Sequence record: MK562502
Length of the DNA stretch: 64,000 nt
Origin: Shigella phage KPS64
Direction: 5' to 3' (one strand)
Shown here: in pieces, positions 4,157 to 5,732 of the stretch
Layout: every line of letters starts with the position of its first letter
Numbering within the stretch: the first letter of the stretch is position 1
Notes under the pieces: model-generated
What the model was told of the DNA's origin: nothing
What the model saw: only the letters and a program-made list of their open reading frames with translations
Database searches by the model: none
Position numbers and translations under genes: made by a program

Positions 4157-4182
4157 GTCTCAGCTACATTAAAATGAGACTC
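4157..4182 (+). other. hairpin with conserved loop GCTACATTAAAA (family member 1)
   Basis: Stem agtctca/tgagact; loop shared with hairpins at 4292, 5572, 5705. Confidence 0.5.
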
Positions 4183-4229
4183 ACCTTTTTAAAAGGTCTT
4201 TAAAAGGGTCTTTTAATGAGGTTTCGCTA

Positions 4230-4299
4230 GGTAGGGTAGTGTCCGGTTGGGTCTGGTAAGGTCAGGTTAGGTAAAGTGAGGTAAGGGTGGATGGTAGTA
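4230..4299 (+). repeat. pentameric (GGTNN)n tract 2
   Basis: ggtag ggtag tgtcc ggttg ggtct ggtaa ggtca ggtta ggtaa agtga ggtaa gggtg. Confidence 0.65.
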
Positions 4300-4319
4300 G
4301 CCACGTTAAAAATCTACCA
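4292..4319 (+). other. hairpin with conserved loop TAGCCACGTTAAAAAT (family member 2)
   Basis: Stem tggtag/ctacca; covaries with tggcag/ctgcca in copy at 5705. Confidence 0.5.
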
Positions 4320-4394
4320 AGTTTCTAAAGAGTCTTCTGTTGAGGGTTCTTTATAAACAACTTAACAATAAACTAAAGTGTGGAGCTAAATGCT

Positions 4395-4982
4395 ATGAAA
4401 CTGTTAAATATCAAAATCACTGGCACTCGTCCTTTCCTGAGCCATGCTGATACTCTGTCAGACCCATTAAATCCTCTGACAAAGTATCACAAGTCTCTGT
4501 CTAGTAAACGTAAAAAGACTGACGAAGACTACGCTCTCTTAGCAGAGAGTCAACTGGTAACCTCTTGTTACTACGACGAGCAACTAGGTTTTGTTATGAA
4601 CGGTGAGATGATTGAGGCTTGTATCAAGTCTGGTGCAAAACTCAACAAACTTGGTAAGGTAATTGACCGAGCCATTATGCTGACAGATGTAGTCTTCCCA
4701 ATGACTATTAAGAACTGTCCAGCAAACCCACAAGAACTAGCTAAGAACCAAGACTTTATCTATGCGAAGTCTGTTAAGATTGGCACAGCACGAGTTATGA
4801 GCTACCGTCCAATCTTCCGTGACTGGTCTGTAGAGTTTGGTTTGATGTTTGATGAAGAACAAATTACCAAAGAAGAACTCTTGATGGTTCTGGAAAATGC
4901 TGGTAACCTTTGTGGTGTAGGTGATTGGCGTCCACGCTTTGGTCGTTTTTCTGTAGAAGTTATTTCAGAAGGTAATGTTTAA
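4395..4982 (+). CDS. hypothetical protein (about 195 aa)
   Basis: ATG at 4395 nine nt after GGAG; no recognisable motif. Confidence 0.45.
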
Positions 4983-4984
4983 TT

Positions 4985-5425
4985 ATGAATACAAAAGCAT
5001 TAGCAGCAAAGTTTAGTTACGGTGATACTGTATCACACTCTGAGATGGACACCTTCTTAGGTATTGTGAAGCCGACTTATCAAGGTGACATTGTTAAGTA
5101 CGAAGATGAAATGAAGGCTTACGCACTTACACGCCTAAATCGACTTGAGAAGTTTATTGAGAAGCTTCTTAAAGAAGAGAAGATTTATCTGGTTACTTCA
5201 ATGGGTGTTGGTTATCGTGTGGTGGAACCTAAACATCAAGCAACTATTGCAAAACGTAAAATGTCTAGTAAGATTGGTCGTGCTTTAAAACAAGCCACTC
5301 AAGCGATTGAGAATGTGAACACTATGGCACTTAGTCATCAAGAACGTTCACGACTGATTGAACAGCAAAACCATTTAGCTGCTATGAAAGCTAACATTAA
5401 CAAGCAACGTAGAAAACCTTTCTAA
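4985..5425 (+). CDS. hypothetical protein (146 aa)
   Basis: ORF followed by an intrinsic terminator. Confidence 0.45.
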   Translation: MNTKALAAKFSYGDTVSHSEMDTFLGIVKPTYQGDIVKYEDEMKAYALTRLNRLEKFIEKLLKEEKIYLVTSMGVGYRVVEPKHQATIAKRKMSSKIGRALKQATQAIENVNTMALSHQERSRLIEQQNHLAAMKANINKQRRKPF

Positions 5426-5434
5426 GTTGACTAG

Positions 5435-5460
5435 GCAGCCTCTTCGGAGGCTCCTTTTTA
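5435..5460 (+). terminator. rho-independent terminator
   Basis: agcctc-ttcg-gaggct hairpin followed by a T-run. Confidence 0.6.
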
Positions 5461-5499
5461 AAAGGTCTTCAAAGAGGGTCTTTTAATGAGGTCTGTCAT

Positions 5500-5570
5500 G
5501 GTGATGTTTGGTAGGGTTTGGCAAGGTTCAGTCAGGTAAAGTGTGGTCTAGTAAGGTAGGGTGTGGGTAG
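5500..5570 (+). repeat. pentameric (GGTNN)n tract 3
   Basis: ggtga tgttt ggtag ggttt ggcaa ggttc agtca ggtaa agtgt ggtct agtaa ggtag ggtgt gggta. Confidence 0.65.
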
Positions 5571-5571
5571 T

Positions 5572-5599
5572 TAATCGGAGCTACATAAAAATTCGATTA
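5572..5599 (+). other. hairpin with conserved loop GAGCTACATAAAAAT (family member 3)
   Basis: Stem taatcg/cgatta. Confidence 0.5.
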
Positions 5600-5640
5600 C
5601 ATCACTTAAGAGTCTTCTAAGAGGGTTTTTAAGTGATGTT
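5600..5640. repeat. 39-bp palindromic element (copy 2)
   Basis: ACATCACTTAAGAGTCTTCTAAGAGGGTTTTTAAGTGATGT, near-identical to 4041-4079. Confidence 0.6.
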
Positions 5641-5641
5641 T

Positions 5642-5709
5642 GGTGGTGGTTTGGTAATGTGAGGTAAGATGTGGTATAGTAAGGCGGGGTTTGGTATGGA
5701 AGGATGGCA
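5642..5709 (+). repeat. pentameric (GGTNN)n tract 4
   Basis: G/T-rich tract with GGT-type triplets at roughly 5-nt period. Confidence 0.55.
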
Positions 5710-5732
5710 GTAGCCTTATAAAAAATCTGCCA
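5705..5732 (+). other. hairpin with conserved loop TAGCCTTATAAAAAAT (family member 4)
   Basis: Stem tggcag/ctgcca. Confidence 0.5.

Follow-up and report, generated by a model that had tools for sequence, protein, structure and literature searches.

A family of four hairpins in Shigella phage KPS64 as probable 3' tails of VIPR guide RNAs

Layout of the locus

The 64,000-nt stretch of Shigella phage KPS64 analysed here (sequence record MK562502; hereafter the window) contains four similar hairpins, which a first-pass annotation made from the letters alone had described as a family with a conserved loop and covarying stems. The hairpins surround a two-gene locus with non-coding gaps of about 400 nt upstream (3978-4394) and 394 nt downstream (5426-5819). 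Each of them is the 3' end of a module of about 135 nt that consists of a G-U-rich hairpin of about 20 bp, 10-15 in-register GGY-NN pentamers (Y, pyrimidine; NN, variable dinucleotide) and the hairpin itself. Very probably, the four hairpins are the 3' tails of four guide RNAs (vrRNAs) of a type II VIPR (Viral Interference Programmable Repeat) locus of the SUSP1 clade. The observation is real and functional, yet the element has already been described and is no new kind of system. The context that leads to this identification, namely an array of GGY-NN units before each hairpin and a RAMP-family gene flanked by the two hairpin pairs, was absent from the first-pass annotation.

VIPR systems, which silence genes by means of guide RNAs in a CRISPR-like manner, were first described in 2026 preprints. 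A VIPR locus comprises a small RAMP-family protein, Vipr, an accessory vap gene and flanking vrRNAs of about 100 nt, which are composed of 9-16 YNNGG repeats and an invariant 3' tail that has a pseudoknot in the SUSP1 clade (10.64898/2026.04.26.720920, 10.64898/2026.04.26.720927). One Vipr protomer is bound per repeat with GGY buried, and NN pairs with double-stranded DNA, in which every third target base is skipped; the outcome is transcriptional repression, and the natural SUSP1 targets lie mostly in a satellite phage (10.64898/2026.04.26.720920, 10.64898/2026.04.26.720927). The experiments on SUSP1 cover vrRNA expression, co-purification with Vipr, the one-base skip rule, GFP repression and defence against lambda (10.64898/2026.04.26.720920), and the Vipr-vrRNA filament was seen by cryo-electron microscopy (cryo-EM; 10.64898/2026.04.26.720927). 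Every defining VIPR feature that can be checked computationally is present at the KPS64 locus.

In the SUSP1 locus, one array precedes the genes and three follow them, in agreement with the published layout (10.64898/2026.04.26.720920), and this agreement fixes which of the genes are vipr and vap1. The window Vipr is 99% identical to that of SUSP1, and the methods of the VIPR preprint assign to the SUSP1 clade those loci whose Vipr is >90% identical to SUSP1 Vipr. It has a RAMP fold (RRM core, glycine-rich loop, thumb) outside a CRISPR context, with Cmr4 and Csm3 as the best structural matches. All eight residues reported to hold G1, G2 and Y3 (H17, R138, D177, W178, R179, E71, M72 and C173; 10.64898/2026.04.26.720927) are present. 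The profiles of Pfam, NCBIfam and PADLOC gave no family for either Vipr or Vap1. In SUSP1, vap1 enhances protection (10.64898/2026.04.26.720920).

Table 1. Features of the putative VIPR locus, in window coordinates
Feature	Position	Strand	Details
Sigma-70-type promoter, TTGACA-16-TATACT	3983..4010	+	consensus scan 11/12; same sequence upstream of SUSP1 locus
Inter-guide hairpin, type A	4039..4081	+	RNA fold, repeat families; about 20 bp, several G-U; core AAGAGTCTT..AAGAGGGTTT
vrRNA1 array	4083..4147	+	13 units; NN = AA TC TG GT AT CT AT TG TG CT CC TT GA
Hairpin 1, vrRNA1 tail, type a1	4148..4183	+	stem 4156-4162/4175-4181, agtctca/tgagact; pseudoknot strands 4150-4154, 4163-4167
Inter-guide hairpin, type B	4182..4222	+	RNA fold
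vrRNA2 array	4220..4284	+	13 units; NN = TT TA AG AG CC TG CT AA CA TA AA GA AA
Hairpin 2, vrRNA2 tail, type b1	4285..4320	+	stem 4292-4297/4314-4319, tggtag/ctacca; pseudoknot strands 4287-4290, 4301-4304
Hairpin type C, last upstream guide to vipr	4321..4358	+	RNA folds
vipr, 195-aa RAMP-fold protein	4395..4982	+	193/195 residues identical to SUSP1 AVU07_agp039
vap1, accessory gene, 146 aa	4985..5425	+	143/146 residues identical to SUSP1 AVU07_agp038
Intrinsic-terminator-like hairpin and T run after vap1	5437..5458	+	overlaps start of next inter-guide hairpin
Inter-guide hairpin, type B	5453..5492	+	RNA fold, repeat families
vrRNA3 array	5490..5564	+	15 units; NN = CT AT GA TT AG TT AA TC CA AA GT CT AA AG GT
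Hairpin 3, vrRNA3 tail, type a2	5565..5600	+	stem 5572-5577/5594-5599, taatcg/cgatta; pseudoknot strands 5567-5571, 5580-5584
Inter-guide hairpin, type A	5600..5638	+	RNA fold, repeat families
vrRNA4 array	5648..5697	+	10 recognisable units; NN = TT AA GA AA GT AT AA GG TT AT
Hairpin 4, vrRNA4 tail, type b2	5698..5733	+	stem 5705-5710/5727-5732, tggcag/ctgcca; pseudoknot strands 5700-5703, 5714-5717
Terminal 19-bp hairpin, then T run	5732..5783	+	closes downstream guides; contains promoter-like site of next gene, 5751-5779

Tails, arrays and inter-guide hairpins

All four inverted repeats can be read directly in the sequence, which bears out that the stems differ and yet stay complementary, and the T-A to C-G exchange described between hairpins 2 and 4 is present. 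Hairpins 2-4 lie where they had been placed at first; hairpin 1 is shifted by one base (4156-4181, not 4157-4182). The stem of hairpin 3 lengthens to 8 pairs including one G-U (5572-5579/5592-5599). The tail homologues sort into four types, a1 (stem AGTCTCA), a2 (TAATCGGA), b1 (TGGTAG) and b2 (TGGCAG), of which the window carries one each. The loop consensus AGCYACRTWAAAA is exact in hairpins 1-3 and has 2 mismatches in hairpin 4 (AGCCTTATAAAAA). As a bare pattern with up to 2 mismatches, the loop is not rarer than chance (14 matches vs 16.3 expected), and single hairpins fold weakly, with -5.6 to -9.1 kcal/mol and z between -1.0 and -2.9. The hairpins are non-random because the whole element stands out, not the fold of each hairpin. 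A covariance-model search, which the first-pass annotation had proposed as a check, was carried out with the 51-nt tail and found no sites but these four in the window (E <= 4e-27; next match, E 0.62) as well as 114 full-length copies across 28 related phage loci. Searching positions 3500-6500 against Rfam at a permissive threshold gave only four sub-threshold chance matches (E >= 2).

The claim of selection on structure is upheld by these homologues, since the stems vary among the four tail types and pairing is kept in the copies from 28 loci. The claim of a constant loop holds for the 3' part (A-U-W-AAAA), which is invariant in all 21 distinct tail sequences and unpaired in the pseudoknot model, and which may be a protein or RNA contact surface. 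It does not hold for the 5' part, which reads CUAC in a1 and a2, CCAC in b1 and CCUU in b2. The 4-5 bases directly upstream of the hairpin change in step with it (GUAG in hairpins 1 and 3, GUGG in hairpin 2, AAGG in hairpin 4), and the two strands (GUAG/CUAC, GUGG/CCAC, AAGG/CCUU) are thus predicted from their covariation to form a 3' pseudoknot. Over the 21 distinct tails, 90.1% of the cells of hairpin plus pseudoknot are standard-paired, compared to 28-40% with slid partners, and in 10 of the 13 pairs both partners have changed. All 500 shuffles stayed below the observed covariation score. A second pseudoknot between the loop UUAAAA and downstream U-rich sequence, which was sought by eye, was inconsistent across the tail types.

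This pseudoknot is the one that cryo-EM has resolved in the SUSP1 vrRNA tail (10.64898/2026.04.26.720927). The tail core of hairpin 2 (b1) is identical to the tail of SUSP1 vrRNA1, the RNA of the published assays and cryo-EM, the a1 core is identical to the tail of SUSP1 vrRNA2, and the b2 core to that of SUSP1 vrRNA4.

The four arrays run in an unbroken period-5 register anchored at the tail, without insertions or deletions, and they are the only period-5 arrays in the window, all on the + strand. The vrRNA4 array is preceded by up to 3 degenerate units from 5633, which add nothing to the target match. Over the 114 homologous arrays, the GGT positions hold about 1-1.9 bits of information vs 0.02-0.36 bits at the NN positions. 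The 119 arrays of the 28 related loci and the window contain 84 distinct 10-unit guides, and none of the four 10-unit guide strings of the window is identical to any other in the compared loci. The guide of vrRNA3 (vr3; the others are named likewise) shares 14 of 20 NN positions with one SUSP1 guide, and vr1, judged by eye, appears to be a shifted variant of a guide in a related locus (L135). The last pentamer before the tail (4143-4147, 4280-4284, 5560-5564, 5693-5697) has the family consensus GGTAT with 1.3 bits at NN, from which three of the four window copies depart (NN = GA, AA, GT). From this sequence conservation, the last pentamer probably belongs to the constant tail rather than to the guide.

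Modules 1 and 2 (4039-4320) lie between the strong promoter-like site and the two-gene operon, and this promoter probably drives vrRNA1, vrRNA2, vipr and vap1. Modules 3 and 4 (5453-5733) lie downstream of the operon and the terminator-like site and are closed by the long terminal hairpin. The inter-guide hairpins have about 17-20 bp, are rich in G-U pairs and share the core RRGTCTT...RGGGTYYTT; the outer stems of types A, B and C differ with pairing kept. Because of the G-U pairs, these hairpins form only in + strand RNA. Across the 28 related loci, the tail type goes with its place in the locus and with the next hairpin: a1 is followed by B in 39 of 41 cases, a2 by A in 21 of 21, b1 by the pre-vipr hairpin C in 26 of 27 and b2 by the terminal hairpin in 28 of 29. 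The most frequent arrangement (9/28 loci) is also that of the window, a1 b1 / vipr vap / a2 b2.

Array and tail together amount to 86-111 nt in the window, with a tail of about 36 nt, and the module including its leading hairpin to about 135 nt. By this arithmetic, the inter-guide hairpins probably delimit RNAs of about 100 nt. As a guess, they could be processing or boundary signals at which the primary transcript is cleaved or terminates; the available text of the VIPR preprints gives no description of their role. It is also conceivable, albeit rather unlikely, that the four tail types are not interchangeable and that tail and following hairpin constitute a position-specific repeat cassette. 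If true, this cassette might govern transcript cutting, the gain of guides by recombination, or filament pairing via pseudoknots. Such a cassette is likewise without a description in that part of the preprint text.

In the annotations of relatives, the locus region carries a "DR_4" repeat or predicted terminators only, and the genome papers on Felix O1 and UAB_Phi87 mention only other repeats. A 49-aa hydrophobic open reading frame without family match lies at 3828-3977, between the DNA ligase gene and the VIPR promoter.

The first-pass annotation took the hairpins for stem-loops whose conserved loop is recognised by a protein; on this view, they would constitute a stand-alone RNA family unrelated to the neighbouring repeats. 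This interpretation agrees with the invariant 3' part of the loop and with the covarying stems. It is nonetheless very unlikely, as the loop is variable in its 5' part, which covaries with the pseudo-repeat upstream (four of the five pairs are double-changed, and 93% of the cells are paired), every copy ends a GGY-NN array on its 3' side and keeps its register, and the identical b1 tail shows the pseudoknot in cryo-EM (10.64898/2026.04.26.720927). Even less probable is that the hairpins, or the larger ones beside them, are rho-independent terminators and promoters as in any phage intergenic region, with G/T-rich tracts that merely reflect composition or are simple repeats prone to recombination. 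One related genome record does annotate predicted terminators and promoters here, a true terminator-like site follows vap1, and a hairpin with a T run closes the locus. The tail hairpins, however, have loops of 12-16 nt, AT-rich stems and no T run alongside, and none is called by the terminator scan. Moreover, the tracts hold a perfect 5-nt register with GGY conserved and NN near-random across 114 copies, and the NN strings match satellite DNA under the one-skip rule only.

A role at the DNA level, as a replication origin, a centromere-like site, or G-quadruplex or R-loop arrays next to the ligase gene, is similarly close to negligible in probability. The G-rich strand does lie downstream of a promoter, quadruplexes of two tiers could form with the G2N3 spacing, and the antisense strand is C-rich and similar to a rut site. 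Against this, the G-U pairs would turn into C-A mismatches in the opposite strand, a pyrimidine is kept at the third position of the repeat, which is needless for quadruplexes, and the near-identical SUSP1 locus makes RNAs that co-purify with Vipr (10.64898/2026.04.26.720920). A TRAP-like ring-protein site, tandem two-tier G-quadruplexes, an antisense rut site or anti-Rho tract, and an R-loop replication origin were likewise considered; the G-U pairs, the conservation of a pyrimidine at repeat position 3 and the match to VIPR led to their rejection.

Candidate targets in an E. coli satellite

Comparing the locus with complete E. coli genomes by BLAST gave short matches in 144 chromosomes, which comprise array and tail only. 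Through these vrRNA-like arrays a satellite was located, and the targets emerged only thereafter. It is an integrated element of about 12 kb with recombinase, baseplate and tape measure genes, an HNH endonuclease and an unannotated stretch of about 2.6 kb, which holds at least one stretch matching vrRNA array and tail. A vipr gene was not detected in the satellite by BLAST. The satellite family is present in 568 of 5,426 complete E. coli genomes, is highly mosaic, and is inserted in a DUF72 gene or near yciI. The copy in the chromosome of E. coli EC12 (NZ_CP070229.1) corresponds to L156:4900-16950, and L157-L168 are further copies.

As a positive control, 77 distinct guides of related phages were compared with the EC12 satellite. 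With a one-base skip, the best matches covered 0.88-0.96 of NN and all lay inside the element, whereas 0, 2 or 3 skipped bases gave at best 0.77-0.85 of NN. The window guides were then scored against 13 satellites, with 300 unit-order shuffles and other skip lengths as controls. For vr3, 27 of 30 NN positions match from codon 10 onward of the tape measure gene, with the first 11 units perfect (other skips at most 21; shuffles 0/300). The same gene is matched by vr4 from codon 15 onward at 17 of 20 positions, with the first 8 units perfect (other skips at most 15; shuffles 13/300). The best match of vr1 (21/26; other skips at most 20; shuffles 1/300) is antisense in a 92-aa gene, and that of vr2 (23/26; other skips at most 18; shuffles 0/300) lies about 85-120 nt upstream of a 322-aa gene, of which a homologue in another satellite is annotated with an HTH domain. 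Three of the targets are coding, and in each of them the skip falls on the wobble position, codon position 3.

The mismatches of these best matches (L161:6508-6551, L158:6570-6598, L157:10920-10957, L165:10596-10633) fall in the tail-proximal units, and the 5' units are perfect. This clustering is unexpected, given that the subunits beside the pseudoknot are resolved in every cryo-EM intermediate (10.64898/2026.04.26.720927). It may be an effect of the limited sampling of 13 satellites.

A self-target was not found in the window, where the best match reached 69% and was no better than with control skip lengths. The 3' ten units of vr1 gave one match in IMG/VR (L154), which was judged to be due to chance as only 2 of 6 flanking units agree, and the ten-unit patterns of vr2 and vr3 and all ten vr4 units gave none in this database. 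Among GTDB genomes, the 5' ten units of vr1 gave one Tenacibaculum match, also judged to be chance, and all 13 vr1 units gave no match in JGI metagenomes.

Several points weigh against the identification of the hairpins as tails of active guide RNAs. The exact-pattern scans of IMG/VR and GTDB (10 units) and of JGI metagenomes (13 units) gave no convincing target, and the guide-target matches cover 81-90% of the NN positions, none of them being perfect. The match of vr4 is marginal compared to its shuffled controls, and the 13 sampled satellites come from 568 satellite-bearing genomes. The variation among the tails consists of only four types and thus reflects few independent substitution events. 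Another limitation is that transcription, RNA ends and the activity of the four guides in this phage are extrapolated by homology with SUSP1, and that the available parts of the VIPR preprints do not establish the role of the pseudoknot, be it in register, stability or dimer contact.

Proposed mechanism and comparison with known systems

Under the VIPR reading, the promoter would transcribe vrRNA1, vrRNA2, vipr and vap1, and vrRNA3 and vrRNA4 would be made from the region after the operon. Each vrRNA of about 100 nt would consist of 10-15 GGY-NN pentamers and the invariant tail of about 36 nt. As shown for SUSP1, Vipr protomers, one per pentamer, would sequester GGY and offer the NN dinucleotides to double-stranded DNA with every third target base skipped, and the resulting filament would block transcription of the target. 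The likely target would be the integrated E. coli satellite, at the 5' end of its tape measure gene, its 92-aa gene and the region upstream of its HTH-type gene. The pseudoknot may act as a fixed 3' handle that sets the register and the end of the filament and protects the 3' end, and the G-U-rich inter-guide hairpins may mark the points of cleavage or termination of the primary transcript.

With VIPR, a new way for RNA to read DNA has been described, in which a repeat scaffold stores a gapped code, and the protein family of Vipr represents the proposed ancestry of CRISPR effectors. The published rules were reproduced here from public genomes: GGY is conserved, NN is variable, one base is skipped, the wobble position is spared and satellites match best. 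Together with the flagging of structured guide-RNA ends from raw phage sequence alone, this is a useful confirmation of the two preprints. New for this phage are the four guides with candidate satellite targets, which, along with the inter-guide hairpins, hold the remaining interest.

A distant VIPR locus (L141:3644-4893; Vipr 40% identical) has 12 tandem guide arrays, each ending in another hairpin tail, GAAnCCGnTTCGCAAGAnnCGGTTTCC, whose stem covaries and whose loop is a constant GCAA. Since the tails of this locus also are hairpins, a structured 3' cap recurs beyond the SUSP1 clade. Irregular arrays of this kind are frequent among unrelated viral contigs, as a scan of IMG/VR for six GGTNN units in a row showed. 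In many unrelated contigs of this database (L004, L005, L020, L079, L082, L084, L085, L088, L092, L094, L097, L108, L110, L112 and L114), short arrays of GGTTA/GGTAA-type pentamers directly adjoin iteron-like direct repeats. These pentamer-iteron arrays might represent a further VIPR architecture or, alternatively, elements of another kind, for example replication origins.

The closest known system is the VIPR locus of SUSP1, which shares with the window the gene pair (99% and 98% protein identity), the GGY-NN arrays, the site after the DNA ligase gene, the promoter, the terminal hairpin, the a1, b1 and b2 tail cores and the satellite family holding the best guide matches. The two loci differ in the distribution of guides, which is 2 + 2 in the window and 1 + 3 in SUSP1, and in hairpin 3, which is of type a2, a tail type that SUSP1 is without. 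Furthermore, SUSP1 is a Suspvirus, whereas the window phage belongs to Felixounavirus (Felix O1-like, Ounavirinae); the nearest relatives of the locus region are the Shigella phages Sf17, Sf18 and Sf19 with 96% identity.

Compared to the CRISPR RNAs of Class 1 systems, in which Cas7-family proteins such as Csm3 or Cmr4 form filaments, the window locus is alike in having a RAMP protein that would polymerise on a guide RNA with a constant structured end and a variable guide. However, it has no CRISPR array, no Cas1/Cas2 and no second RAMP, its protein fits no Cas family profile by sequence, and its repeats are 5-nt GGY-NN units instead of a repeat-spacer arrangement. The VIPR guide is discontinuous, with 2 of 5 RNA bases reading 2 of 3 DNA bases, and its handle is a 3' pseudoknot, in contrast to the CRISPR handle, a repeat hairpin cut by Cas6.

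The trp RNA-binding attenuation protein (TRAP) binds conserved triplets separated by two variable spacer bases, in 11-13 repeats with one subunit per repeat. The resemblance to VIPR is a formal one. TRAP is a closed ring; for attenuation it reads the triplets, and the spacers between them are uninformative. VIPR forms a helical filament of a RAMP-fold protein in which the spacers are the informative part.

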